From: a virus
Lineage: Duplodnaviria; Caudoviricetes
Length of the DNA stretch: 26,674 bases
IMG/VR virus record: IMGVR_UViG_3300048598_000110
Span: 1 to 26,674 of that record
Reading direction: 5' to 3' (one strand)
Shown: positions 6,070 to 26,674 of the stretch, one piece after another
How the letters are laid out: every line of letters starts with the position of its first letter
Position numbering within the stretch: the stretch's first letter is position 1
Made by a program: the position numbers and the translations under genes
The notes under the pieces: model-generated
Database searches by the model: none
Told to the model about the DNA's origin: nothing
The model's input: only the letters and a program-made list of their open reading frames with translations

Positions 6070-6753
6070 TTACAGCCCGGCATCCCGTTTCAGTTTCGCT
6101 ATCGCCCGGTCGGCATCCGCTCGCATCTGTTGTGTGGTCGCCTTGTTGGGCGACACGATGATTTTGCGTTGTGGATTGTTGCCAAGCCCCTCGTTGTGGA
6201 ATCGTGCGATGTCCGCGATTGTTGCTTTGCCTTTCGAGTGTTTGGCTGGGCCGCCGTACCCCACATCCACTTCGATTTGCGTTTTCCCGATTGTCTCGAT
6301 GCCGCCTTGCGGGTTCAGCGTCGGATTCAGAGCCCCATAGAGAGCGTTGGTGTCTCGCAGCATGTCCACTTTTCCGTAGGTGGCGGCTAGCTTCTGCTTT
6401 AACTCCTTGATTTTTCCGACCAGCTTCTTACGTGTGGCCGTAATGCGCTCTTGCTTCTTGACCGCTCGTTCTCGTCGCTTCTGCTCTCGCTCGACCTGTC
6501 GCGCCCTGCGTGTCGCTTCCCGTGCCAAGCGATTTTGCTCTGCTTCCGCCCGCCTCTGTGCTCTTGCCGCCTTCCGTGCTTCAATCTCGGCCTGTCGATT
6601 CTGAGTTAACTTGACGCGTGCCGATTTCGCCTTGTCCCGCAGAGATTGAATATGTGCCTTATGCAGTGTCCTGACTTCCGCCAGTTGTTTCTTGTTGGCC
6701 TCCCGTATTGCGGCATGGGTCGCGTGCTTTGCCGATCGTGCTTTCTTGGCCAT
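6070..6753 (-). CDS. C-terminal half of Mu gpG-like virion morphogenesis protein, preceded by a ~130 aa Arg/Lys-rich helical region (227 aa)
   Basis: Start reassigned to ATG 6753 (TGATG overlap). Motifs MLRDTNALYGAL, VDVGYGG and IARFHNEG...PQRKII match the family's LxDTGxL...VG...AxxHxxG...PxR pattern. Confidence 0.78.
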   Translation of the reverse strand: MAKKARSAKHATHAAIREANKKQLAEVRTLHKAHIQSLRDKAKSARVKLTQNRQAEIEARKAARAQRRAEAEQNRLAREATRRARQVEREQKRRERAVKKQERITATRKKLVGKIKELKQKLAATYGKVDMLRDTNALYGALNPTLNPQGGIETIGKTQIEVDVGYGGPAKHSKGKATIADIARFHNEGLGNNPQRKIIVSPNKATTQQMRADADRAIAKLKRDAGL

Positions 6754-7343
6754 CACCCGGCCGCCAACGTGAACTGGTATTCGTAGAATGCACTCCGGGC
6801 GAGGTCGGCCGGCTCGGTCGCACGGTCGGCCAGCTGTGGAACCGGATCCACGCCGCCGCCTCGCCTTGTCGCGATCGCCACAGCACCGGAACACATGGGC
6901 GGCAGCTGGTGAATCGACGCCGAATCATTGACCGGGGCCGGCAGGCATGCACCGATCAGCGGCAGATGCCGGACCGCAGCCAGGCCGATATCGAGCCAGC
7001 CGTATTGCCATCCGCAATAGCTCTGCATCCATCGTACGGCCGCGTCACGATCGAAACAGTCAGACGATCGATCCCACCGGTAAACGTCGTACCGGCCGGG
7101 ATACTGGGCCACCTGACTCGCGAGCGTGACGGCCCGACCGCCGTACCACTGCAACACCTCAATGAGAAACAGCCGGTCGCCCCACCATGCAGCCATGGCC
7201 GCGTGGCTGTAGATCGATCGGCCGCCCCTGGCTATGGGGCTCCGCGGGGATCGGTAAAGCAGTAGGTCCGCATTGCCGATCCGGTGGAGAGCCTGAGACA
7301 GCGGAATCAAATTCGGTTCAGGTGCTAGGGCAACGGTCGCCAT
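6753..7343 (-). CDS. Permuted papain-like NlpC/P60 amidase/peptidase (YiiX/YaeF-like, 196 aa)
   Basis: ADLLLYR...YSHAAM (His first)...LIE...GWQYGW...MCSGAVA (Cys last)...TEPADL, the circularly permuted motif order. Confidence 0.85.
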   Translation of the reverse strand: MATVALAPEPNLIPLSQALHRIGNADLLLYRSPRSPIARGGRSIYSHAAMAAWWGDRLFLIEVLQWYGGRAVTLASQVAQYPGRYDVYRWDRSSDCFDRDAAVRWMQSYCGWQYGWLDIGLAAVRHLPLIGACLPAPVNDSASIHQLPPMCSGAVAIATRRGGGVDPVPQLADRATEPADLARSAFYEYQFTLAAG

Positions 7344-12419: not shown

Positions 12420-12575
12420 CTACGGCTCCACTCTACGAATTGATGCAGCCACCTGACGGGCAACGGACGCTACTGACAACACCGCACGCACCGCATAGGT
12501 AGCGATCTTCTTGACCGCCATCCATCGGCCCACAGCCCAATAGCCTCGATTCCATCGCCCGGTAAACCAGCTCAC
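12420..12575 (-). CDS. Small Trp/Arg-rich protein (51 aa; below the ORF-track cutoff)
   Basis: MSWFTGRWNRGYWAVGRWMAVKKIATYAVRAVLSVASVARQVAASIRRVEP*. GTGA overlap upstream, stop 2 nt before the next ATG; fills the gap exactly. Confidence 0.7.
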   Translation of the reverse strand: MSWFTGRWNRGYWAVGRWMAVKKIATYAVRAVLSVASVARQVAASIRRVEP

Positions 12576-14596
12576 GAATCGTGATACTCCAGATTGGATC
12601 GATTTCCGTTTGCGTCCACGGTTCCAGTAACGGCCGTTGTTCCGGCGAAATCCTTAAACGTCTCTGAAGTTGTGCCGGCCCCGGACCTGGCCCCGGCGAT
12701 CACTGCGCCGATGTACCGCACGGCAGCGGCCAACGACTTACCGGCGATCTGGTCACCATCCATGATGGCCGTTTCAATGGACACCAGAGATGGCAAATCC
12801 TCAATGGCCGCCAGCACGGCATCAACGTTTTCCGATGTGGCCAATTCTTCAACGGCCGTCGCGATGATTGCTGCCGTTGCCTCAGAACTGAGTGGGGCCG
12901 TATAGCCGGCAGCCGCCAGGCGGGTACTGATCGCCGCATCCAATCGGGCAAGTCTTGCTTCCGTTGCCGCTGACTGAATAGCGGCAATCCCGTCGTTGTT
13001 CGGGGCGGTATAACCGGATTCCGCCAGCCTGCTCGATACGGAAACATCGAGCTTTGACAGCCGCGTCTCGGTGGCCGCCGCTGCGATCACGCCAACAGTT
13101 TCCGCGATGCTTGCCACGCCCGCATTATTGGGGCTCGTGTAATCAGCAGCCTGCAATGTGTCGCTTATGTCGGCGTCCAGGTGGGCGAGCCGCTCTTCTG
13201 TTGTTGCCGTCGCGATCGCCGTAAGCTGGCTGGCCTGCGATTCGGTCAACCCCGCCGCACTAGTGAGCGTCCTTTCCTCGGCTGCCCAAATGGCAGATAT
13301 GGCGGAACTAGACAGCCCTATTGCGCTATCGACTGATGCCGGATCGTCGGGAATCAGATCAGTTCTCGCCTTAATCGCGGTCGCTACAGTGGACGTGGCG
13401 TAGCTGTCGGCGGCAATCGTTCGCGTGCTGAATTCGCTGACCGTCGGCAGATCGGCTAACTGGGTATCGAGGTTTGCCTCCGCAAGCCCGATCGCGGTGC
13501 GGATCTCTGTTGCGTCGAGTGGAGCTAAACCGGACTCGTAAGCTCCAACAGTCACCGAGAACCCGAATCCGCTAAGGGTGCGATCCTCGGCCGTCCAGAT
13601 ACTGCTGACGGCATCGCTGGTGAGTGCCATAGCATCACCTTTGGCGGCCGGTTCGCTCGGAAGATTTTGCGTTTTCGCGTTGATCGCAGAAATCGCAGTG
13701 TTGTCTGGCGCCATGTAGTCGGTCGCTGCAAACCTCGTACTTACGGCTACATCGAGTTTCGCTGCCACGGATGCGGCGATCGCCGCGAGTTGCTCTGCTT
13801 GATCATTGGTTAGCCCCGAGCCGCTTCCTACTTCCAGCGTTCCGACGTAACCGACGCCGGTTGCGCCCGTCCATCGCGGAACGTCCAACTCGACATGCTC
13901 GGCGGACACGACGTCGCTTTTCGCTACGTAGTCGGCAGTCAGCGGGAGGAGTGTGCCCGTCCCAAAACCCTCCTCCTGCAGTGCTGGATTCGTCATGCCA
14001 TATCGGACGTCACACGGCATGACCGTGTCGCCAGTATGATACGATCCGCTGACGCCCAACCCGCCGCCACCGCCATGACCACCACCAGCCTCCTCGGTAC
14101 CATCGCCGTCGTTTCCATCCGCGCCGGCAATATCAGATCCGGTCAGCACCAACAGTGCGCCGGAGTCGACCACGACACCACAACCTCCAGATTCGCCATC
14201 GCTGCCACTGGTCGGACCGTCGGCGTTCGATCCGTTTGAGCCGACGCCACCTGTGGCGTTGCCGATCTTGGCGGCGCCGCCTTCGAGGATCCGCACGGCG
14301 CTGTTTCCCCCGTTGCCGGTCCCCGCATAGGAGCCATCAGCGCCATAGGCGTCCGAGGCAAACAGCGTTGCGCCGGCCTCAACAGTAACGAAATTGCCGT
14401 TGGTGGCCTGCGTCGCGCGAATGACGCCTAGGGTGCACCGACCGCTGACTGCGACCGATCCGCCTAAGTCGTGCACCGCTACGGTCACAACATCACCATC
14501 GATCATGGTCATCACGCTTTGCACGTGGATCGTGTCGCCCGCCTCATACTCCACGTCGACCAGGCGGCCATTCGCGGTAGTGTAGACGTCTGCCAT
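12572..14596 (-). CDS. Gly-rich, repeat-containing putative virion fibre protein (674 aa)
   Basis: GAGGA RBS; N-terminal beta/Gly-rich region; repeats LDxxVS(S/T)R...YxAPxN (x4), IWxAExRTL (x2), GLTxxQAxQLxAIA (x2). Function is inference. Confidence 0.7.
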   Translation of the reverse strand: MADVYTTANGRLVDVEYEAGDTIHVQSVMTMIDGDVVTVAVHDLGGSVAVSGRCTLGVIRATQATNGNFVTVEAGATLFASDAYGADGSYAGTGNGGNSAVRILEGGAAKIGNATGGVGSNGSNADGPTSGSDGESGGCGVVVDSGALLVLTGSDIAGADGNDGDGTEEAGGGHGGGGGLGVSGSYHTGDTVMPCDVRYGMTNPALQEEGFGTGTLLPLTADYVAKSDVVSAEHVELDVPRWTGATGVGYVGTLEVGSGSGLTNDQAEQLAAIAASVAAKLDVAVSTRFAATDYMAPDNTAISAINAKTQNLPSEPAAKGDAMALTSDAVSSIWTAEDRTLSGFGFSVTVGAYESGLAPLDATEIRTAIGLAEANLDTQLADLPTVSEFSTRTIAADSYATSTVATAIKARTDLIPDDPASVDSAIGLSSSAISAIWAAEERTLTSAAGLTESQASQLTAIATATTEERLAHLDADISDTLQAADYTSPNNAGVASIAETVGVIAAAATETRLSKLDVSVSSRLAESGYTAPNNDGIAAIQSAATEARLARLDAAISTRLAAAGYTAPLSSEATAAIIATAVEELATSENVDAVLAAIEDLPSLVSIETAIMDGDQIAGKSLAAAVRYIGAVIAGARSGAGTTSETFKDFAGTTAVTGTVDANGNRSNLEYHDS

Positions 14597-14603
14597 TGCG
14601 TCC

Positions 14604-14924
14604 TCACGAGTTCTGAGTGGTTGTCACTGTCCCGTCTGGGTTGACCGTTACTGTGTAGCCATCCTTCGTGGCAAGCGTCTTAGCGTCGAGCGAGAGCCCC
14701 GCGTTACCGGCGGAAACCAAAAACGCGTCGAGAGCCGAGGCGAGAGCAAGGAACGATCTAGCGTCGGCTCCCAGCCCATCCAACACGCTCTGCGGCGACG
14801 CACTGCCCCACAGTTCGCTACAGAGCAATCGCCGCTCTTGCAACAAGAAATGAGCCATCGCCGCACACCGCGCACGAATGCGGCCGGCAGGTGTCGTGGT
14901 GGAAGATGACGAAATCAATGCCAT
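14604..14924 (-). CDS. Hypothetical protein, possible fibre chaperone (106 aa)
   Basis: Strong AAAGGAG RBS; helical, ending in TVNPDGTVT; lies between two fibre-like genes. Confidence 0.65.
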   Translation of the reverse strand: MALISSSSTTTPAGRIRARCAAMAHFLLQERRLLCSELWGSASPQSVLDGLGADARSFLALASALDAFLVSAGNAGLSLDAKTLATKDGYTVTVNPDGTVTTTQNS

Positions 14925-14954
14925 AAAATAATCTCCTTTACTGTGGCAGTTGAG

Positions 14955-17699
14955 CTACAGTTTCCAGTTACTATCCACGATCAGCGTCGTTCCGCTTGTT
15001 GGCGGAGTCAGCTTTCTGAGGGCCAAACCGAATATACGATTCATGGCGTCCAGTGCATTGCCAGCTCTGTCATTGGAGACCGTGAGCGTCCACTTGTTCG
15101 CGGTCGATGGCTTAGTGTTGCCGAGAAACCCAGCAATATACGGGCCGCTCGTATAGAGTTGCGTTCCCTGCACCAAAGCCATGTCGTCGACGCACACGCC
15201 GAGCAAGGCAATCTCGCTCGCAATCAGATTTGTCGTGTTGATCGTGAGAGCTTCCACTACGCGAATTCGCACATACACGGGGTTGACGTACGATGCGGGA
15301 ACGCGGAACGAGAACGCAACATGCTCGTGAGCGGTCGTGCTGATTTCAGTCGCGTTCAGCATCAAGGATGCCTCGTTGCCTGCCGAATCCGTGATAGGGT
15401 CGCCGGTAACGCTATCGACTACCTCAATGGCAATGGAGCCGGTCGTGATCGTTCCCACTGCCCGGACTCTCGCACCAACAAAATAGACCGTGTCGGTGGA
15501 AAGCGTCACCTGTTGACACAGAGCCGGCAGTGTCGTTCTGCTCGCGGGAAACTGTATGGCATAGGTGCTGTAGTTTCCTGGATTGCCAGCGACCTCAACG
15601 GTAACCTTGAAATCGCTGGTCGTCGCCGCATTCTCCACGGTTTGCAGTGTCTCGGGCACGCCTGGATAACCGTAAAAGTAGATCCGGTATTCATACACAC
15701 CTCCCGCGCCTGCGACACCCGAGGTATCCGTGCCCACGACGGTTACGGCACTAAGGCGAGGAAACTCCCGCAACGCTGCCTGAACTTCGGCAGCGGTAGC
15801 GCTCTCACTCAGACGTGGCGTCACATACACCTTGCCGTCGCACGTGTACTTGATCTGCCAATACCCGTTCCCGTTCGGACTCGCTACCGTGATCAGTTGG
15901 GTCGGGATGTTCGTCATCGTAATATCGGTGCCCGGCGTCCCCGACGAGACGAACCATCCGTCGGGAATATATTGCGACGATCCGATGAGCGTTCTACTGT
16001 CGAAGCTGCCGTTGGTCAACAGGTTTGCGCTCGACGCCACCGTCACGGCGGTGGCTGCACCGGACCCTTGCGGCCAATTGGAGGCATTCCAGTCGACCGC
16101 TGGTATATCGCTGGTAACCTGGAGCGTAACGCTGGTGGTAGACGACGCCGTTACGTCAATATTCAACTGCTCATCGTACGCATAATAGAGCGGATTCCCT
16201 ACAGCGTCTGCCATAGATATGGCGATTGCCATATCGCCGGAATTGCCGCTTCCGGCCGTGAGAGTGTAGTCGACTGACGGCACAGCGACGTATAGCCCGG
16301 CAGCCTTGAGGTTATTGAAGAACATCGACACAGCCGCCGTGGAATTCATGGCCGTGTCTCCGGTTTCGCGGCGAATCGTAGTGATCACCAACGACAAGCA
16401 CAAATTAATCAGCGTCGTTGCAAATGCTTCGTTCGCCGTTATGGCAGCTTTCATGGCACTGCTCAGGGCACTGAGGTTCAGCCACGCTTGCGGATTCAAC
16501 ATGTACGCCGTGACGAAGTTCTCAAGCCACGTGGGCATCCATGTCGTTGAAAGGGCCCCGAGAGCCGACAACAGACGCGACGCCTGGCCGATCGTGTCGA
16601 CAATCGTATTCGTGCTCGATTCGTCCGTGTAATCGAGTGCAGGGTACGATCCGGCGGCGTAGCCGTTCTTGTCGGCGTTGAGAGTCATGGATGTCGACGC
16701 GACATTCGCAGACAACGCGATGCTGCCGGGCAGCAGAACTCGCAGCCCTGACGCCGTGTTGCTCGCCGCAGACGTACCGACACTGTTGGTTGCTTTGATC
16801 GTGTAGGTCGACCACACGCCAACAGGCGCTGTCGTATCGGCGTAGGTTAGCGTACTGTAGGGCAGGTCGCTGGCAATCTGCGTGTCATTACGCCACACGC
16901 TGTACGCCACGTCTGTGATCTCAGTCGCCAGCCACACCAACGTAACTCCCGATGTGCTCGTTGAGGTTGCCGACTGCAAGACCGGAGAATCCGAAATCAC
17001 TGCCGTCCCGGACGACCATGCTCGACCGCCAGTAGCACCCGATCCGCCATCAGTCCCGGCGTCCCCGTCGGTACCGTGAGCCCATGCCCCGGTGACCGTT
17101 GAGCCTGAGCCACCTGTGACTCCCTGGCCGCCGGATCCACCGTTACCTCCGCTGTTCGATCCGCCGGATCCACCGTTGCCTCCGTACGAGTTGCCGGTGA
17201 CCGTCACCGTTGTTGCTGTGATCCCGTTGCCGCCAGTGCCACCGGCAGTGCCACTGGACCCGCTTTGACCGTTACCTCCAGCGCCGCCCTGGCACGTTCC
17301 GGTCACTGCGACGGTAGTTGCGGCCACTGCAGCCCCGCCGCTACTTCCACCGTCAGCCCCCGCTTGCCCGGATCCGCCGGTGCAGTTTCCGACGATGGTC
17401 AGCGTCGCAGACCCTGAACCGATCAAGCACGTTGCGTTGCCTCCGGTTTGTCCGTTGATATTCGCGTTGATCGTCTTGGCGGTGCTCAAGTCGATAGTGA
17501 ATCCGCCACCGTTATTGCTGTACAACGCTGTCGCGGTGAACGACTCGACGTCGATTGCGACCGCGTACCCGTTCGACTCAAACTCATCGGCCGAGTTGCT
17601 TCCCGGCGTGCCGGAATACGCGCCCCCCGTACCGTCAGCGGATGTGTTCAACGAGATGGTCGAGATATTGCCGCTCGACTGTGCGTAGTAACGAGTCAT
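14955..17699 (-). CDS. Large multidomain putative virion protein: Gly-rich region, FN3 domain, CBM-like domain (914 aa)
   Basis: GGxGGxG runs; FN3 signature VTLVW...YSVWRN...YADTT...YTIKATNSVGTSAASN; CBM4/9-like NLLTNGSFD...PDGW; no signal peptide visible. Confidence 0.75.
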   Translation of the reverse strand: MTRYYAQSSGNISTISLNTSADGTGGAYSGTPGSNSADEFESNGYAVAIDVESFTATALYSNNGGGFTIDLSTAKTINANINGQTGGNATCLIGSGSATLTIVGNCTGGSGQAGADGGSSGGAAVAATTVAVTGTCQGGAGGNGQSGSSGTAGGTGGNGITATTVTVTGNSYGGNGGSGGSNSGGNGGSGGQGVTGGSGSTVTGAWAHGTDGDAGTDGGSGATGGRAWSSGTAVISDSPVLQSATSTSTSGVTLVWLATEITDVAYSVWRNDTQIASDLPYSTLTYADTTAPVGVWSTYTIKATNSVGTSAASNTASGLRVLLPGSIALSANVASTSMTLNADKNGYAAGSYPALDYTDESSTNTIVDTIGQASRLLSALGALSTTWMPTWLENFVTAYMLNPQAWLNLSALSSAMKAAITANEAFATTLINLCLSLVITTIRRETGDTAMNSTAAVSMFFNNLKAAGLYVAVPSVDYTLTAGSGNSGDMAIAISMADAVGNPLYYAYDEQLNIDVTASSTTSVTLQVTSDIPAVDWNASNWPQGSGAATAVTVASSANLLTNGSFDSRTLIGSSQYIPDGWFVSSGTPGTDITMTNIPTQLITVASPNGNGYWQIKYTCDGKVYVTPRLSESATAAEVQAALREFPRLSAVTVVGTDTSGVAGAGGVYEYRIYFYGYPGVPETLQTVENAATTSDFKVTVEVAGNPGNYSTYAIQFPASRTTLPALCQQVTLSTDTVYFVGARVRAVGTITTGSIAIEVVDSVTGDPITDSAGNEASLMLNATEISTTAHEHVAFSFRVPASYVNPVYVRIRVVEALTINTTNLIASEIALLGVCVDDMALVQGTQLYTSGPYIAGFLGNTKPSTANKWTLTVSNDRAGNALDAMNRIFGLALRKLTPPTSGTTLIVDSNWKL

Positions 17700-17744: not shown

Positions 17745-18518
17745 TCACGCCGCCGTTGTTGCGCAAGCCGGCAGCACAAGGCCTTCGTTACGTCCGGTGA
17801 TCTCGCGAGGGGCGAACGCACCGAACACCTGAATCCCACGAGATACTTGCGAGGCCGGCAGGTAGCCAAACCCGCCATCCTTCCATTTGAACCCGTAGGA
17901 ATTTTGAATCTCGATTTTCATTGTCTTGGGGTTGGTGGTCCCCTTGACGCCGATTGCCAGGACGCAATGCCCGCCACCGCCAGGCCAATAGACGCCGATA
18001 ACGACCGGACTTCCCCTCTGAATTGCACTCACGAGATACAGCAGACCGGGAATGTCCCAGTATTCGAAGATCCGATTCTCCTCTGCTACCGCGTTGGCGC
18101 CGTCGGGCTCCGGAGTCTCCCAGTTGGTCAATGGATACATCGCCAGCGGAAGGTGTCCGATCGTGTTGACAAAATGGCACACGTCCGAGATTGCAGACCC
18201 GCCATCTTCCCCGCCGTTGACAGCTCGGTAGATCCACGCCGGCGAGAAGTGCACGAACGGCAGTCCCTGGGCCCGTCGCAGCATGTGAGCGCACGCAACA
18301 TTGGCGAACGGGCAGCACTCGTTGGTTTGACCCTGGTACAAGATCACCGGCCGACCGTCGACCACAGGCACCAGCGGACGCAGCGAAATGTCCCGCCATT
18401 CGTTTTCTGGAATCAGCCAATCAGCCCCAGCCACCTTGAAGTGACCAGAGCCGACGCTTGATCCGAGCTTATCACGCGAACGCGGAAGGCAACCGGTACC
18501 GAGTTTGATCTTTCCCAT
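17745..18518 (-). CDS. Papain-like C1 cysteine peptidase (257 aa)
   Basis: Start reassigned to ATG 18518 (MGKIKLGTGC). QGQTNECCPFA (oxyanion Gln, catalytic Cys), FSPAWIY, GGHCVLAIG (His), IQNSYGFKWKDGGFGYL (Asn). Confidence 0.9.
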   Translation of the reverse strand: MGKIKLGTGCLPRSRDKLGSSVGSGHFKVAGADWLIPENEWRDISLRPLVPVVDGRPVILYQGQTNECCPFANVACAHMLRRAQGLPFVHFSPAWIYRAVNGGEDGGSAISDVCHFVNTIGHLPLAMYPLTNWETPEPDGANAVAEENRIFEYWDIPGLLYLVSAIQRGSPVVIGVYWPGGGGHCVLAIGVKGTTNPKTMKIEIQNSYGFKWKDGGFGYLPASQVSRGIQVFGAFAPREITGRNEGLVLPACATTAA

Positions 18519-18526
18519 ACGGCCCC

Positions 18527-18850
18527 CTATTCGCTCCACTGGTACTTGAGGAGTCGTTCGGCCAACTCGACAGCCGTCGCACCAGCCGGCAACGGGCCTT
18601 GCCACACGATTGAGCCGTAAGCATCGGCCAGAAACACGTACGGCAATGCCGACCCGGGCGGGATCAGATTGACCCAAGCTGCAATGGACGAATCACCGGC
18701 TGACCGGTCGACGTCGAACACGAACAGCCGACCTCGGCAGATCGATCGGCACTCGTCCGACAGCAACAACGCGACTTGATCGGGCGTCTGTGCGGACGAT
18801 TCACGAATCACCACCGCCTGGTAGAGCGTCGGCTGCTGTTGCTCGGTCAT
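18527..18850 (-). CDS. Hypothetical protein, possibly a thioredoxin-like fold without CxxC (107 aa)
   Basis: ATGA overlap with the portal stop; LPYVFLADAYGSIVWQGPLP resembles the cis-Pro beta-hairpin end of thioredoxin folds. Confidence 0.6.
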   Translation of the reverse strand: MTEQQQPTLYQAVVIRESSAQTPDQVALLLSDECRSICRGRLFVFDVDRSAGDSSIAAWVNLIPPGSALPYVFLADAYGSIVWQGPLPAGATAVELAERLLKYQWSE

Positions 18851-21488: not shown

Positions 21489-21706
21489 GACGCCCCCCAA
21501 TGGCCCCGAGGGCATCGGCCGTGCCGCCAAGTCTGCTCTGTCTTGCTTCCTCGGCTTCGAGGACAGAAGCAACGGCATCCGTAATCGCCCAGCCACTTGT
21601 AGCACGCGTTCGTTGTACAGATCGCCTTGACTGCCTGGATTTCTCCGGGTGATCTTGTCAGTCCATCGATCAATATCGGTTCCACGAATCCACTGATGCC
21701 GGCCAT
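21485..21706 (-). CDS. Small Cys-rich putative metal-binding protein (73 aa)
   Basis: Six Cys ending in CPRGHW; coupled on both sides (TGATG, GTGA). Confidence 0.7.
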   Translation of the reverse strand: MAGISGFVEPILIDGLTRSPGEIQAVKAICTTNACYKWLGDYGCRCFCPRSRGSKTEQTWRHGRCPRGHWGAS

Positions 21707-22641
21707 CAGGTGTACACCATATTCAGTTGGTCGGGCCGAAAGCGGACTAATGAAATCCGTTCGTCGTTGACGCCCATCGATGCCACGAAAGTATCACTGT
21801 CCGAAAAAGTGCCACCTTCTGACACCAGGCCGCAGGGGAACCGGATTCGCGTTCCCTCCGCTCGTTGTGGCATCTGCTCGGGCAGCTCGATCACTGGAGC
21901 CCTGGACAAGCCGATGCAACGGAACGGCGCACGGGGCTCGATTGCCACAGCTCCCACGTGGTACTGCAGGGCCGTGCCGTCGTGGACCTCGAACCTCAAC
22001 TGCGTGTGAAAGAATTGGACCAGGCAACTGCCGCCGGCGCCATGTCTGGGAATGAAATTGGTGCCCCCGCGGGGCTCGCCCCACTCCGCGGCCGACCACG
22101 GCGTAGCATGTTCAGTGATCACGGCATCCGCGGCCGATAAGCTGAAATCTTCGCGAACCGGCAGCACGACGTGATGGCCGCACCAAATCGAATAAGAACA
22201 CCACAGCCGTCCGTCGACGTCGTCGAAGAAAATCCAATTTTTATCGACGATATTTTGTTCTGGGAAATCGATTATTCGCAGGGCCAGCGGCATTCCGCTG
22301 ACATCACAGGGCCCAATCGCGATCCTCGATAGACCCTCGCCTTGCTCCCGCGTGTAGAGCGTCACGGAGCACCAGAGCTGGCCTTGGTGTTCAAAGTACC
22401 TCGGATCTTCGTACGACATCCAGCCCGGCAACAAGGCCCGCGGCACGTCCCTGGTGGTCCCCGGAATCACTTGCCAGGATTCATTGAGGTGTGACAACAC
22501 CAGCGAAGAGCAATAGGCCCCACCGATCCGGTAGAGAATCGGCCGGCAATTTCCTATGCGAGCAATGGCCGCGTTGTACCGGCGGCGCTGGACAACTCGC
22601 CGGAATGGGTCGAACTCACAGATTCCAGCGGTATCAGGCAT
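21706..22641 (-). CDS. GH130-like five-bladed beta-propeller glycoside hydrolase/phosphorylase/transferase (~311 aa)
   Basis: YNAAI...ILYR, YEDPRY, DKNWIFF, PRGGT, FFH, IRFPCGL, SMGVND in the GH130/DUF377 motif order; likely start ATG 22641. Confidence 0.78.
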   Translation of the reverse strand: MPDTAGICEFDPFRRVVQRRRYNAAIARIGNCRPILYRIGGAYCSSLVLSHLNESWQVIPGTTRDVPRALLPGWMSYEDPRYFEHQGQLWCSVTLYTREQGEGLSRIAIGPCDVSGMPLALRIIDFPEQNIVDKNWIFFDDVDGRLWCSYSIWCGHHVVLPVREDFSLSAADAVITEHATPWSAAEWGEPRGGTNFIPRHGAGGSCLVQFFHTQLRFEVHDGTALQYHVGAVAIEPRAPFRCIGLSRAPVIELPEQMPQRAEGTRIRFPCGLVSEGGTFSDSDTFVASMGVNDERISLVRFRPDQLNMVYT

Positions 22642-23110
22642 CGCGGCTATCAAGATAGGCCCTCAACTCTTGGTCGCAAGATTCCTGCCGCTCACGCAAA
22701 TAGGCGGCATCGTCGTCCAATCGCAAATTGACTCGATCCCAGCGACGAAGATGAGCTACGATGAAGTGGCAGCCGAGGCGGTTACAGATCGACCGGAGGT
22801 TGGCCGGATCTAACTCGAGTTCCGGCCGGCCGATCGCGATTGCCACATGGACGGGAATCAGGTGATGCACGCAGTCAGCCGGACCCCCACAGACGATACA
22901 ATCCGGATGTTCGTCCAGCGTGTGCTTGGCAAGCGTGTGCCATTTGGGACTTCTCGGCCGGCCGAGCAACGGAGCGTCAGCACCCAGCAATGGGATGCCA
23001 GAGCCCACCAGCACCACGCGATGGGCACAGTGTTCGCAAACCGTCTGGCTGTGCAAAACAGCTTCTTCTTCGGTGGCTCCACAGATCACACAACAGGCTT
23101 CGGTGATCAC
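22634..23110 (-). CDS. HNH endonuclease with an extra N-terminal CxxC...CxxC (158 aa)
   Basis: RSPKW...HPDCIVCG...VHHLIP...LDPANLRSIC...CH; N-terminal CVIC and CEHC. Confidence 0.88.
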   Translation of the reverse strand: MITEACCVICGATEEEAVLHSQTVCEHCAHRVVLVGSGIPLLGADAPLLGRPRSPKWHTLAKHTLDEHPDCIVCGGPADCVHHLIPVHVAIAIGRPELELDPANLRSICNRLGCHFIVAHLRRWDRVNLRLDDDAAYLRERQESCDQELRAYLDSRDA

Positions 23111-23724
23111 GATTCAGCTTCCTCTCCGTTTGGGGCGTTCGATTCTAAATCCGGCCCGGCCGGGATTGTAGCGTCCATGACTACTGCCTCTTGATCTGGT
23201 GTTAACGCGGTCCCCTCAACTCCAGCAGCCTGTTTGACTTCGTCCAAGCCAAGCAACTTAGATCGCTTTTCCACGCACTCCAGCACGATTTGCAGGTAAG
23301 ACGGATTCCCGCTCTGCCCTTCGCGACGAGTCTTGAGCTTGCGTCGGATCCACTCCAGGGAATGCTTAGGCGGAGATTTCTTTTTCTGACTGTCCTCAGC
23401 CTGCTCATCGGCCGGCTGATTCTCCGCCTCTTCCTGGATCGTCTGCCGTTCCCTCAGTGACAAATCCCAGGCATGCCACGCGGCCGATTCAACGGCGTCG
23501 ATCCTGGCTAACTCACGATTTAGAAGCTCGTTGTAGTCACGAAGGGCCGATTCCTTCCACTGTGCGCGAATGACCGCAATGTCCTTGCAGACCGTGGGGG
23601 CCGTCGTGCCAAGCTTATCGGCCACCTCTCGCATCGTGAGGCCTTGCAGGTACAGCCTCACCACAAGCTGACGGCGCTCATCCTGATTGACGTAGACTGA
23701 GAGTGGATAGCCCGGCTTGCCCAT
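23107..23724 (-). CDS. Probable terminase small subunit, HTH-type (205 aa)
   Basis: N-terminal HTH RRQLVVRLYLQGLTMREVADKLGTTAPTVCKDI; ELARID helix; RSKLLGLD motif; upstream of terL. Confidence 0.75.
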   Translation of the reverse strand: MGKPGYPLSVYVNQDERRQLVVRLYLQGLTMREVADKLGTTAPTVCKDIAVIRAQWKESALRDYNELLNRELARIDAVESAAWHAWDLSLRERQTIQEEAENQPADEQAEDSQKKKSPPKHSLEWIRRKLKTRREGQSGNPSYLQIVLECVEKRSKLLGLDEVKQAAGVEGTALTPDQEAVVMDATIPAGPDLESNAPNGEEAES

Positions 23725-23727
23725 CGT

Positions 23728-24084
23728 TCACCTGTTCGGGTAGAACCAGCCGGCAATACCGCCGAGGATGGCTGCCACGATCGTGATGAAAGCCCACCAC
23801 GCCTTTGAGAGGCCACTGTGATACTTGCTACGAATCTGATCCAGCTCCTTACGATGCTCGCGTAGCTCGCCCTTCACGTCTCGCATCTGGCCCTTAAGAC
23901 CAGGCTTGTCTGGATTACCGTCAATTCCGAAAACTTCCGTGTGCAGGGCTTTAACTTCACTACGACACGCAGCCTCCTTTTCTTCGCGGCGTTCGAAGGC
24001 AATGCGAAGCTCAGTGAATTCTCGCACAAGCGTCTTGACGTCCTTCCGCACTTCCTGTACTAGGCCGGTCTCGACGTCTGTCAT
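23728..24084 (-). CDS. Coiled-coil protein with C-terminal transmembrane helix, holin/XhlA-like topology (118 aa)
   Basis: Heptad-rich body followed by KAWWAFITIVAAILGGIAGWFY; likely start ATG 24084. Confidence 0.65.
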   Translation of the reverse strand: MTDVETGLVQEVRKDVKTLVREFTELRIAFERREEKEAACRSEVKALHTEVFGIDGNPDKPGLKGQMRDVKGELREHRKELDQIRSKYHSGLSKAWWAFITIVAAILGGIAGWFYPNR

Positions 24085-24109
24085 CGTCAGAATCCATCCA
24101 TGGTGTTTG

Positions 24110-24163
24110 AAGAGCAAAGAGCCAGCGCCGGCCGGCAGTAAATCAGCACCACCGGCCGGCGCT
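24110..24163 (-). terminator. GC-rich intergenic hairpin, possible weak terminator or processing site
   Basis: Perfect 12-bp inverted repeat AGCGCCGGCCGG (24124-24135) / CCGGCCGGCGCT (24152-24163), 16-nt loop; minus-strand tail GGCTCTTTGCTCTT is only moderately U-rich. Confidence 0.55.
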
Positions 24164-24176
24164 ACGGGAGGGCCGG

Positions 24177-24620
24177 CTACGTCGCAGTCGCTTGTGGGGA
24201 CGCGTTGGAACCTCCCGATATCAATTCTGCGACCGGAGATATCGCGGCACCAGACGCCACAGCCCCGGCGTTAATCGCCTTGAGGATCTTTTCTCGCCAG
24301 GTCGCATCCTTTGCAAAGTGAGACAGCAGCTTCTCAAACAGGTCACGAAAGACATCGGGCAGGCCGTCGGTCTGGATCCGTTTCAACAGGGCTTCGACCG
24401 CCTCGACGAATCCCGAGTAGTCGCCGATAGCGTAGCAGCTCAGAGCGTGAGCGAGCTTCGAAAGACCCCAAGCACCGAACTCGTTGGCCAGGGCCGCAGC
24501 TTTGCGACGGCGAGATTCACGACGGTTGTAGATCCAGAGGGCGAAGAAGATTCCACACAGCGGGGCCAGGAAGCACGTGGCGTAAAGCCACACGTTGGGA
24601 TCGACTTGGGCGAAGATCAT
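24177..24620 (-). CDS. Membrane protein with N-terminal TM helix (147 aa)
   Basis: VWLYATCFLAPLCGIFFALWIY followed by basic NRRESRRRK; GGAAGG upstream. Confidence 0.7.
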   Translation of the reverse strand: MIFAQVDPNVWLYATCFLAPLCGIFFALWIYNRRESRRRKAAALANEFGAWGLSKLAHALSCYAIGDYSGFVEAVEALLKRIQTDGLPDVFRDLFEKLLSHFAKDATWREKILKAINAGAVASGAAISPVAELISGGSNASPQATAT

Positions 24621-24645
24621 AGAAAGCCTTCCGTGAATAGATATT

Positions 24646-25095
24646 TTAGGTTGGATCAGCCTTCGGGCTGTTGTAGAAACGTTCGTTGAGAATTCTGCGA
24701 TTGAAGTCTGCAGTCTCGCAGGAAACGATTGTTGGAGCGAATGGTTCCGCCAACTCGTGAATGTCCTGCAGACGTTTACGAGCCTCTACAAGCGACTGCA
24801 TGGTACCGGTGTAGCTATCGTCCCAGTCCTTGCACATCGCATTGAGTCTTTCGATTTCTGACTCAGCTTCTGCCAGCTTCGCATTGGCGGCTTCAATCTC
24901 GCTGGTCAGGCGAGCGTATGTCGCATCCGCAACCTTCATCGCCTTGACGTGTTCGGATTCCAGGTATTTCAGCTTCGCCTTGACTGCATCGCGTTCTCGT
25001 TCGACTGCCGCAATGGTGCGCGCATGCCCCTTGACGAGCAGGATGTCAGTAAGCATGCCAAGCAGAAACGCGACGACGACAGATACCCATCCCAT
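24646..25095 (-). CDS. N-terminal TM plus long coiled coil, i-spanin-like architecture (149 aa)
   Basis: WVSVVVAFLLGMLTDILLV followed by ~90 aa of heptad repeats; function inferred. Confidence 0.65.
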   Translation of the reverse strand: MGWVSVVVAFLLGMLTDILLVKGHARTIAAVERERDAVKAKLKYLESEHVKAMKVADATYARLTSEIEAANAKLAEAESEIERLNAMCKDWDDSYTGTMQSLVEARKRLQDIHELAEPFAPTIVSCETADFNRRILNERFYNSPKADPT

Positions 25096-25099
25096 GACT

Positions 25100-26101
25100 T
25101 CACCCCGTGTGATTCTGGGTAGCGAAGAACACCAGCCCGCCGACGGCCACGGCCGCCGCGAACAGCCCGACGATCACGGCCGGCATTGGCCCGTCTTCCT
25201 TCTTCGCCGGCTCGGGCTCTGGAGAACGTTGCTGTCCAGCCTGGATTTGCATATAAATCTGGTCCAGTCGCTGATTGGTCGGGCCAAGGTCGACCGGAGG
25301 AACAGCCGGAATTGGCAACGTCGGCCAGGGACCGACTTGAGGCTGAGGCTGTGGCTGTGGCTTGCGAATCGGACAGATGCCACCAGGACAACCGGACGAG
25401 CCGGAACAACCACTCGGGCCGCATTGCGATTTCTGCTCCGTCGCCTGGCCAAGGTTGCGATACAGGACTGGTAGCGAGGTAGCAATCCCTGTCGAGTCGT
25501 CCAGTGTACGAGCCCGGATCAGACCCACAATATGTGTACCATCCGCGTCGAATACAGCGGACCCACTACGTCCGTTCATAGGCGCCGGCGTAAACATCAA
25601 GTCGGTATTGCGATAGCCGAGCACGTGTCCTTTCCAACCCGTTGACCACGCCCCATTGGCACAGCCGACCGAAGTAATCGTATCGCCGGCCTTAATTACC
25701 GTCCCCTTAGAAGCCATCGGAATCACCACCGGCAGCCGCCCGCCAAACTGCGAAGATTCAACGGCCAGGATCGCCGCGTCCGTATCCGACTGTTCGACTC
25801 GTGCGACAACCACCCCTCGAAACGGCGATGACTGATGACCTTGCTGCCAGAATTCGCAAGCCACCTCCGAGTACTTGTCGACCACGTGAGCAGCCGTCAA
25901 CACGTACACCTGACCCTGGCTGATCTCAAACACGCAGCCGGATCCGCGGCTACCGTCCGGTGTAGTGATCCGACACGTGGCGTCGATACACTGCTCGACC
26001 GAGGCGTGAGCCACAGCCCCCAGCAGCAACGCCAGAAGCATGATCACCAATCCCATCACCAGAAACCAAACCGCCCTCACCCTCGACATATACGTGCTCA
26101 T
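25100..26101 (-). CDS. Exported, C-terminally membrane-anchored trypsin-like serine protease (333 aa)
   Basis: GGAGG before ATG 26101; signal peptide ending AHA/S; triad LTAAHVV, DTDAAIL, NGRSGSAVF; CGPSGCSGSSGCPGGICP and (PQ)4 linker; C-terminal TM AVIVGLFAAAVAVGGLVFFA. Confidence 0.9.
   Translation of the reverse strand: MSTYMSRVRAVWFLVMGLVIMLLALLLGAVAHASVEQCIDATCRITTPDGSRGSGCVFEISQGQVYVLTAAHVVDKYSEVACEFWQQGHQSSPFRGVVVARVEQSDTDAAILAVESSQFGGRLPVVIPMASKGTVIKAGDTITSVGCANGAWSTGWKGHVLGYRNTDLMFTPAPMNGRSGSAVFDADGTHIVGLIRARTLDDSTGIATSLPVLYRNLGQATEQKSQCGPSGCSGSSGCPGGICPIRKPQPQPQPQVGPWPTLPIPAVPPVDLGPTNQRLDQIYMQIQAGQQRSPEPEPAKKEDGPMPAVIVGLFAAAVAVGGLVFFATQNHTG
25338..25361. repeat. Hexamer tandem repeat TG(A/T)GGC x4 encoding the Pro-Gln linker
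   Basis: TGAGGC TGAGGC TGTGGC TGTGGC on the + strand. Confidence 0.85.
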
Positions 26102-26129
26102 CGTTCGGCCCTCCATCCCTGAATTGGTA

Positions 26130-26674
26130 TCACAACAAATGTGCTGCTCTCCGCCTGGCCATGGCTAGCGCCTTGTGAAGCCGCCTGTGTGCGGTAGTCG
26201 TTGACGTCCCGAGTCGTTCGCCGATCTCCTCAAGCGTCAACCCTTGCCAGTATCGCAGTCTGAGAACCTGGCGAGCCTTGGCCGGCAGTGCTCTTACGAT
26301 AGAGATTACCTGCTCATGCCTGATAAATTCCGCAAGCCTATCGCGTGGATCGATTCGCGGATCCTCGCCAGTTCGCATGTCATCGTTCGGGAGTAGGATT
26401 TTGGTAGAGGCTTCCACCGCACGCCGTTTCTGAACGAATTTTTTCAGGTACCTCAGAATCGAGTGGGCCGCGTAGTTGATCAGAGGCACACCATACCGAG
26501 AATCCCAGAGCTGACAGATTCTCGGGATTTTATCGACAACTACCCCCCAACACTCTTCGGCCAAGTCGAGCCGTTCGTCAGCCGATCGGATGCACAGCGA
26601 CCAGAAAAGCTTCTGGTGGTGCGTCAGGAGCCACCACGCCTTGTCTAAATTTTCTGCGGAGATTTCTCTACCGC
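26130..26674 (-). CDS. Sigma-70-family RNA polymerase sigma factor (regions 2 and 4), 5' end outside the window
   Basis: Frame stays open beyond the track start 26564 to the edge (...AWWLLTHHQKLFWSLCIRSADERLDLAEEC...). Region 2-like WDSRYGVPLINYAAHSILRYL; region 4 LPAKARQVLRLRYWQGLTLEEIGERLGTSTTTAHRRLHKAL. Confidence 0.88.
   Translation of the reverse strand, partial: GREISAENLDKAWWLLTHHQKLFWSLCIRSADERLDLAEECWGVVVDKIPRICQLWDSRYGVPLINYAAHSILRYLKKFVQKRRAVEASTKILLPNDDMRTGEDPRIDPRDRLAEFIRHEQVISIVRALPAKARQVLRLRYWQGLTLEEIGERLGTSTTTAHRRLHKALAMARRRAAHLL

Follow-up and report, generated by a model that had tools for sequence, protein, structure and literature searches.

A candidate protease-based lysis cassette in a probable planctomycete phage

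Bacterial tailed phages are taken to need a peptidoglycan hydrolase for escape from the host cell. We analyzed a stretch of 26,674 nucleotides (the window), which is the linear virus record IMGVR_UViG_3300048598_000110 (Caudoviricetes) in full and has a CheckV completeness of 47%. Between a sigma factor gene and the packaging genes it carries a block that codes for a trypsin-like serine protease and three small membrane proteins. We put the probability at roughly 0.55 that this block is a protease-based lysis cassette of a planctomycete phage, the protease taking the endolysin's place and cutting load-bearing envelope proteins instead of peptidoglycan; that the block serves non-canonical lysis in some role can be held with rather more confidence. 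Bursting of the cell by cutting wall proteins appears likely because no known wall-cutting enzyme was found in the window or in near-complete relatives.

The trypsin-fold protease and its membrane partners

The gene order given in the preliminary description, namely sigma factor, protease, transmembrane (TM) plus coiled-coil protein, a second TM protein (TM2), a coiled coil plus TM protein and a gene resembling a terminase small subunit, is indeed present, and the cassette, its flanking genes and all other genes of the window lie on the minus strand. The protease gene (25100-26116, minus strand) codes for 338 residues, or 332 or 329 from alternative ATGs, and matches Pfam Trypsin_2 at 4.5e-13. 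Its product comprises a catalytic domain at about residues 39-230, a Cys/Pro-rich linker, a short helix at 278-296 and a putative C-terminal membrane anchor at 313-331. The catalytic residues H77, D113 and S184 are invariant in 34 of 34 aligned sequences, and an AF2 (AlphaFold2) model with a mean pLDDT of 82.4 matches the protease domains of DegS and DegP at E 3e-10. The protein is a chymotrypsin-fold (clan PA) enzyme with an intact His-Asp-Ser triad; a PDB sequence search with it returned nothing useful. Hydropathy marks two hydrophobic segments, 18-36 and 313-331, and the N-terminal candidate signal peptide ends in A-H-A. These features, together with the model helices, predict export, signal cleavage and C-terminal anchoring. 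A hydrophobic N-terminal stretch lies just ahead of the domain in all 56 homologues listed, as it does in three further trypsin subfamilies from related phages. The dN/dS of the window protease against its homologue at locus L032 is 0.15, and values of 0.02-0.33 over 13 pairs of protease domains indicate purifying selection; synonymous distances of the domain are similar to those of the neighboring YiiX-like, F5 (a small membrane protein family, see below), terL and portal genes. A quick tree of 67 protease domains was largely unresolved and was left out of judging the direction of transfer.

HtrA, DegS and DegP proteases make up MEROPS family S1C. The window enzyme shares with them the chymotrypsin fold, the His-Asp-Ser triad and a location, predicted here, on the periplasmic side, but differs in an identity of only about 20%, a G-R-S-G-S motif, a C-terminal anchor, its place on a phage and the absence of a PDZ domain from both the Pfam results and the structure model. 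Membership in the HtrA/DegS family was rejected on the missing PDZ domain and a TIGR02037 score of 20 bits against a cut-off of 416.

The 149-residue TM plus coiled-coil protein (24646-25095, minus strand; N-terminal TM at 3-21) is i-spanin-like by architecture only. A homologue search returned only the protein itself, making it an orphan, and its Pfam and PHROGs matches are coiled-coil noise. An overlapping frame of 44 codons (24969-25103, minus strand) has an L-T-S-C lipobox and a short, partly polar hydrophobic region; it is doubtful, and an o-spanin role for it is conceivable but unlikely. The spanin reading is unsupported because the TM plus coiled-coil gene is an orphan and the only nearby lipobox frame is doubtful, and the spanin-like protein proposed earlier has neither a homologue nor a convincing lipoprotein partner.

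An alignment of eight sequences gives TM2 (24177-24620, minus strand) a single N-terminal TM, a basic stretch and a helical domain predicted to be cytoplasmic. Its match to holin phrog_16918 is weak (E 0.005), PHROGs gave no match for 30 of its relatives, an Atlas search for it gave no usable match and a single-protein scan of metagenomes found no relative. A protein search yielded 420 relatives at E<=0.001, the best 150 of which measure 76-235 residues and are not fused; judged by sequence, TM2 is a large, unnamed, stand-alone family. It goes with 8 of 12 short proteases, two of which are probably mis-called, and with none of the 50 long, C-terminally extended ones; a metagenome scan of a partly overlapping set placed it with 4/6 short and 0/20 long proteases. 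The idea that TM2 is a piece split from the long proteases' tail was rejected, as hhalign gave a probability of 0.76%, aligning no more than the TM and basic residues, and no fusion is seen among the best 150 relatives. We keep TM2 as a putative functional complement of that tail, not as its homologue. A complex prediction for protease and TM2 scored 0.00.

The 118-residue protein with a coiled coil and a C-terminal TM (23728-24084, minus strand) is close in Atlas features to viral hypothetical proteins (0.93-0.94) and to an XhlA-bearing cluster (0.91; 22% XhlA), and matches phrog_2990 at E 7e-4. A similar protein, F30, matches the hemolysin phrog_937 at E 3e-4, and hhalign of the window protein to F30 gave only 23.5%. 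The protein looks XhlA/holin-like, not spanin-like. Its resemblance to XhlA-bearing clusters offers a weak parallel to xhlA-xhlB-xlyA of PBSX (PMC5589764), from which the window differs in having no XhlB, no XlyA amidase and a diderm host. Between this gene and TM2, an 18-pair hairpin (24123-24164, minus strand; -43.8 kcal/mol, z -3.36, with 0 of 200 shuffles equally stable) may be an attenuator or an RNA-processing signal.

Endolysin searches and distribution of the module

Searches bore out the earlier statement that the window has no recognizable muramidase, amidase, M15/M23 or transglycosylase motif. Pfam and PHROGs revealed no canonical peptidoglycan hydrolase among the 29 window proteins, and none emerged when the window was searched in six frames for Amidase_2, Phage_lysozyme, M15_4, M23 and NlpC/P60. 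A conventional endolysin elsewhere in the genome, which would have told against the proposal, was looked for in near-complete relatives and not found. From 12 protease-positive virus records, together with host clusters, 350 cluster representatives were taken, and Pfam detected no peptidoglycan hydrolase among them; five protease-positive records are 90-100% complete. Since the gene caller misses genes, the window protease among them, gap open reading frames (ORFs) and six-frame searches were added. No peptidoglycan hydrolase emerged from 150 of the 153 gap ORFs of seven records. When 39 records were searched in six frames for Amidase_2, Phage_lysozyme and M15_4, the only matches lay in G050 (amidase) and G049 (M15_4), distant terminase relatives with GC contents of 32% and 36% that serve as positive controls. 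Endolysins were thus detected in 0/37 planctomycete-like records and 2/2 low-GC outgroups. Amidase_3, SLT, M15_3, M23 and NlpC/P60 were each negative in five of five records searched in six frames.

A protein search with the protease returned 208 relatives, the organism-named ones being mostly from Thermoguttaceae or Phycisphaerae, and an alignment scan located 31 viral loci and 47 genome loci. The suspected host group held up, in that 45 of the 47 genome records are titled Planctomycetota (the other two Nealsonbacteria and Mycobacterium), making planctomycete bacteria the likely hosts. The protease is not a core host gene: a phylum-wide sample of 201 genomes gave one strong match, the query centre itself, and the gene is present in 39 of 151 genomes of that centre's family, Thermoguttaceae. 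GenBank phages gave no match, and there is therefore no isolated phage for reading across.

Genes were called at 78 loci and in the window; dropping L051 for a broken frame and removing six duplicates left 72 distinct loci, 52 of which contain a gene from a list of phage families, most of the others being short or poorly called. The neighborhood proved to be conserved among the 62 loci with sufficient sequence. In 27 of them the protease is preceded, at a distance of up to three genes, by a YiiX-like gene, and in 33 it is followed, also within three genes, by a small membrane gene, belonging to F5 (TM then coiled coil, 24 loci), TM2 (8) or the coiled coil-then-TM type (5), with the window counted among both of the latter. 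F5, the commonest partner, has a weak match (E 0.004-0.006) to holin phrog_1350. Upstream of the protease there is usually a gene for a helix-turn-helix (HTH)-zinc protein or the YiiX-like gene. In phages the module keeps to one strand with tight spacing inside a late or structural operon, and either opens the late operon, ahead of the terminase genes, or sits between head and tail genes. The lambdoid lysis slot to which the protease had been assigned is therefore occupied here but is not fixed across relatives.

The lambda-type lysis cassette consists of holin S, endolysin R and spanins Rz/Rz1, and the P2-type cassette lies between head and tail genes. The present block resembles both in that a hydrolase is flanked by small membrane proteins, behind the late regulator and before the terminase or inside the structural block; unlike them, it has a serine protease for which both a signal peptide and a C-terminal anchor are predicted, and the spanin pair is unsupported. 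It has the late-operon position of a holin-endolysin cassette, near regulator and terminase, without the defining peptidoglycan hydrolase.

Several loci show variant proteases. Two additional TM segments extend the protease at its N-terminus at the Pirellulaceae-type loci L028 (9842-11428), L030 and L031, where it is the sole lysis-like gene seen in proviruses that are 81-99% complete; it is possibly a holin-protease fusion, and no YiiX-like gene was found at these loci. The label of holin for this N-terminus was dropped, since it came from a motif only and PHROGs gave no holin. L025 (8665-10014) and L076 (8841-9857) code for an exported-looking domain upstream of the protease, fused in L025 to three TM segments and with no Pfam or PHROG match. 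At L266 (5252-6760) and L264 (4362-5642) the trypsin is fused to a thioredoxin domain, beside YiiX-like and TM plus coiled-coil genes, an arrangement that would suit a disulfide-linked wall.

Relatives were also chosen without reference to the protease, as terminase relatives sharing the window's head module and as 20 records of at least 25 kb picked by their tail protein. G048 carries an unrelated exported trypsin and a TM plus coiled-coil gene after the portal gene, together with direct terminal repeats and DNA polymerase A, and no integrase among its scanned genes. In G046 and G047, papain cassettes with two-TM holin-like genes occupy the trypsin's place, and no endolysin was found in the 97 of their 117 proteins scanned. 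Hidden Markov models (HMMs) detected neither of the window's papain-fold genes in the trypsin-carrying G009, G012 and G013 (90-100% complete) and G048. Among the 20 tail-protein records, five have a trypsin, two pair an exported papain-like enzyme with a thioredoxin-like protein (names taken from motifs, with no Pfam match) and 13 have neither; a scan of 146 of the 213 unannotated representatives and four short genes from these records found no endolysin. The two sets support interchangeable proteases. Most of the 13 protease-negative records have genes for small TM proteins and lipoproteins only. Among related phages lacking both protease and endolysin, G026, G027, G039 and kin (L242:18431-18895, L247:7122-7669 and L243:1605-1865) have a lipoprotein with a C-terminal TM, an architecture like that of a u-spanin, or a two-TM protein with a small lipoprotein, along with a TM plus coiled-coil gene; enzyme-free lysis is possible in this group.

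Papain-fold genes, the host envelope and rival explanations

The preliminary description overlooked two peptidase genes of the window. A papain-like (C1-type) cysteine peptidase of 257 residues (17745-18518, minus strand), a second candidate lytic enzyme by its sequence, follows the portal gene, has no signal peptide and matches the peptidase phrog_16701 at 3.5e-6. It matches the papain-family protein Blo t 1 weakly over the His/Asn region (E 0.37) and aligns with the enzymes of G047 and G046, the latter a Pfam Peptidase_C1 at 6.9e-9; a single-protein scan of viral contigs found no relative and a separate search found one. As this gene and the trypsin occur together in the window, the phage has both protease types that relatives carry singly. 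Upstream of it lies a 107-residue gene (18527-18850, minus strand) without a Pfam or PHROGs family match, which may be thioredoxin-like; comparison with the partner in G047 gave no significant match. The two genes form an insertion 3' of the portal gene (17745-18850). The other peptidase gene (6753-7343, minus strand), in the neck region and also without a signal peptide, codes for a YiiX/YaeF-like permuted papain of the NlpC/P60 superfamily, whose H47 and C151 are conserved in all 28 aligned sequences. It matches 3kw0 at 2.7e-6 and YiiX 2if6 at 9.5e-4, with a fold match to 3kw0 at TM 0.66-0.68. It shares fold and His/Cys order with the permuted papain-like YaeF/YiiX enzymes, among them BcPPNE 3kw0 (PMC3142127), and differs in scoring below detection by Pfam PF05708. 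The window copy is intact and stands apart from its usual partner, the protease.

Reports on planctomycete envelopes describe wall preparations containing YTV cysteine-rich proteins and a patchy set of peptidoglycan genes (PMC8567305), dispensability of murABCDEFGJ in Planctopirus (PMC10632474) and detection of peptidoglycan components (PMC12673574). YTV wall-protein genes are present in five of the five protease-carrying host genomes that were tested, in keeping with the earlier suggestion that the envelope relies on proteins. In many genomes of Thermoguttaceae type, the cassette heads a compact chromosomal cluster of packaging, head and tail-like genes, composed of an HTH-zinc regulator, YiiX-like gene, protease, small TM gene, terminase, portal, capsid, and neck and tail-tube-like genes (L032/L129-L130, at about 15,500-32,900 of G025:C195; L035, L040, L043, L046-L048, L050, L055, L057, L060, L068, L069 and L113-L125). 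The cluster recurs at three sites, each time immediately after housekeeping genes. It has no upstream integrase or replication gene, no tape-measure gene in the six copies followed to their end, and a dN/dS of about 0.1-0.3. It looks domesticated, which fits lysis for particle release, and is a candidate gene-transfer-agent-like element.

If the block is a lysis cassette, the sigma factor would switch the late operon on, and the protease would be exported by Sec, lose its signal peptide and stay tethered to the inner membrane by its C-terminal helix, with the Cys/Pro linker positioning the catalytic domain in the periplasm. The XhlA-like protein would act as a holin-type timer. TM2 would supply in trans the membrane-plus-cytoplasmic element that long proteases have as a C-terminal extension, and might help to time or cluster the enzyme. 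The substrate may be the cysteine-rich YTV protein layer or the protein tethers of the outer membrane, and the YiiX-like and papain-like enzymes, which have no signal peptides, could be helpers released by the holin.

Several observations weigh against protease-based lysis. Three of the five hosts, including G025, the genome with the closest protease and TM2, keep murA, several Mur ligases and a transpeptidase. The trypsin is not the sole candidate lytic enzyme, given the two papain-fold genes; the holin matches are weak and the spanin pair is unsupported. No peptidase or endolysin was detected in 13 of the 20 tail-protein records, including the 100% complete G039, and so a phage without an endolysin need not have a protease. 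The six-frame search with PF05708 missed known YiiX-like genes and could in the same way have failed to see a divergent wall hydrolase. About half of this phage genome lies outside the record. The cassette's place in host-resident clusters in which no tape measure was seen also fits a host function.

Lysis might be non-canonical with the cutting done by holin-released YiiX-like and C1-like enzymes, the tethered trypsin being an accessory or activator. Both papain-fold enzymes lack signal peptides as canonical endolysins do, the YiiX-like one belongs to the NlpC/P60 superfamily and precedes the protease at 27 of 62 loci, and G046 and G047 have the papain cassette only; permuted enzymes of this kind possess a hydrophobic pocket, which in YiiX contains a fatty acid (PMC3142127). 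We nevertheless regard this division of labor as unlikely, since G009, G012, G013 and G048 have only the trypsin and both papain-fold genes of the window lie outside the cassette. A canonical endolysin could instead be encoded in the missing half of the genome or be too divergent to recognize, the protease then being an add-on. The incomplete record, the peptidoglycan genes of the close host G025 and the many relatives' proteins without a family match speak for it; the contrast between 0/37 planctomycete-like records and 2/2 outgroups, with five protease-positive records at least 90% complete, makes it quite improbable.

Other explanations take the protease out of lysis altogether. In lysogens a tethered protease could clip receptors or incoming phage proteins, resulting in superinfection exclusion or surface remodeling, as the preliminary description had allowed. 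The membrane tether, the purifying selection in host-resident clusters and the presence of the protease in over a quarter of Thermoguttaceae genomes (39/151) would suit such a role, which is improbable given that the gene is co-directional and tightly spaced in a late or structural operon, moves with holin-like genes, occurs in the lytic-looking G048 and showed no separate promoter (a sigma-70 scan, itself a weak test, found 0 sites). The enzyme might also remodel the envelope for chronic release or process phage membrane or virion proteins, and a planctomycete has been reported to release phage without lysis (PMC10945688); some copies of the module lie among head and tail genes. Against this, tailed capsids with portal, tail tube and tape measure, all of which Pfam and PHROGs identify in the window, normally leave by lysis, a separate head maturation protease (phrog_328) is present, and predicted export would remove the enzyme from assembly, so that a non-lytic role would surprise us. 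Finally, in an extracytoplasmic function (ECF)-sigma circuit, a DegS-like site-1 protease would cleave a neighboring anti-sigma membrane protein. An ECF-type sigma factor directly upstream, best fold matches to DegS and faint anti-sigma matches (E 0.02) point that way; the protease has no PDZ domain, any non-HtrA trypsin would match DegS, and the usual upstream gene is an HTH-zinc or YiiX-like one. Such a circuit is very improbable, as only in the window does this sigma factor adjoin the protease.

Adjoining late genes and significance

The late genes run from the sigma factor through the cassette to the HTH protein, an HNH gene, a gene of 315 residues, terminase, a Mu-type portal, and head and tail genes. 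The sigma-70/ECF-type factor (26130-26674, minus strand; Sigma70_r4 7.5e-14; TIGR02937 67 bits against a cut-off of 42.9), whose 5' end is cut off, is by its position the likely late-gene activator; at no other locus does a sigma factor adjoin the protease. The HTH protein (23107-23724, minus strand; Pfam HTH_23; phrog_645 3.9e-19) is likely the terminase small subunit; the HTH and the position agree with that earlier label and nothing further does, the HNH and 315-residue genes standing between it and terL. The 315-residue gene (21706-22653) has no family match, and its reading as a glycosidase, from a beta-propeller motif, found no support in Pfam or a further check. Two long Gly/Thr/Ala-rich genes without family match (12572-17699; 674 and 914 residues), in the interval from portal to head morphogenesis, possibly code for head fibers.

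Titles and abstract openings in the open-licence literature contained no description of protease-based lysis by planctomycete phages. LypABC, which acts in release of the Caulobacter gene transfer agent (PMC13236601), likewise provides endolysin-free lysis that needs trypsin-like peptidase activity; it belongs to the CARD-NLR-like systems and has ATPase and nuclease domains, whereas the window protease is predicted to be exported. A LypABC-type system was rejected here, as the cassette has no CARD-like, NLR ATPase or nuclease partner. New elements are TM2 as a strict partner of the short protease form and the host-resident Thermoguttaceae particle cluster that retains the cassette. A broader and tentative proposal, to which we give somewhat less than even odds, is that tailed phages of YTV-walled planctomycetes have dropped endolysins and lyse by wall proteolysis, using interchangeable trypsin- and papain-fold enzymes with holin-like partners and TM2, and that a Thermoguttaceae lineage has domesticated the cassette in a gene-transfer-agent-like cluster.

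If protease-based lysis is confirmed, proteases in place of a peptidoglycan hydrolase would be a new lysis chemistry for a phage group; this can be tested in those Pirellulaceae-type prophages that are cultivable and have the single-gene form. The protease's substrate would name the load-bearing layer and give a handle on the dispute over peptidoglycan and protein in planctomycete envelopes (PMC10632474, PMC8567305); the substrates of these enzymes would then reveal what holds the planctomycete cell together.

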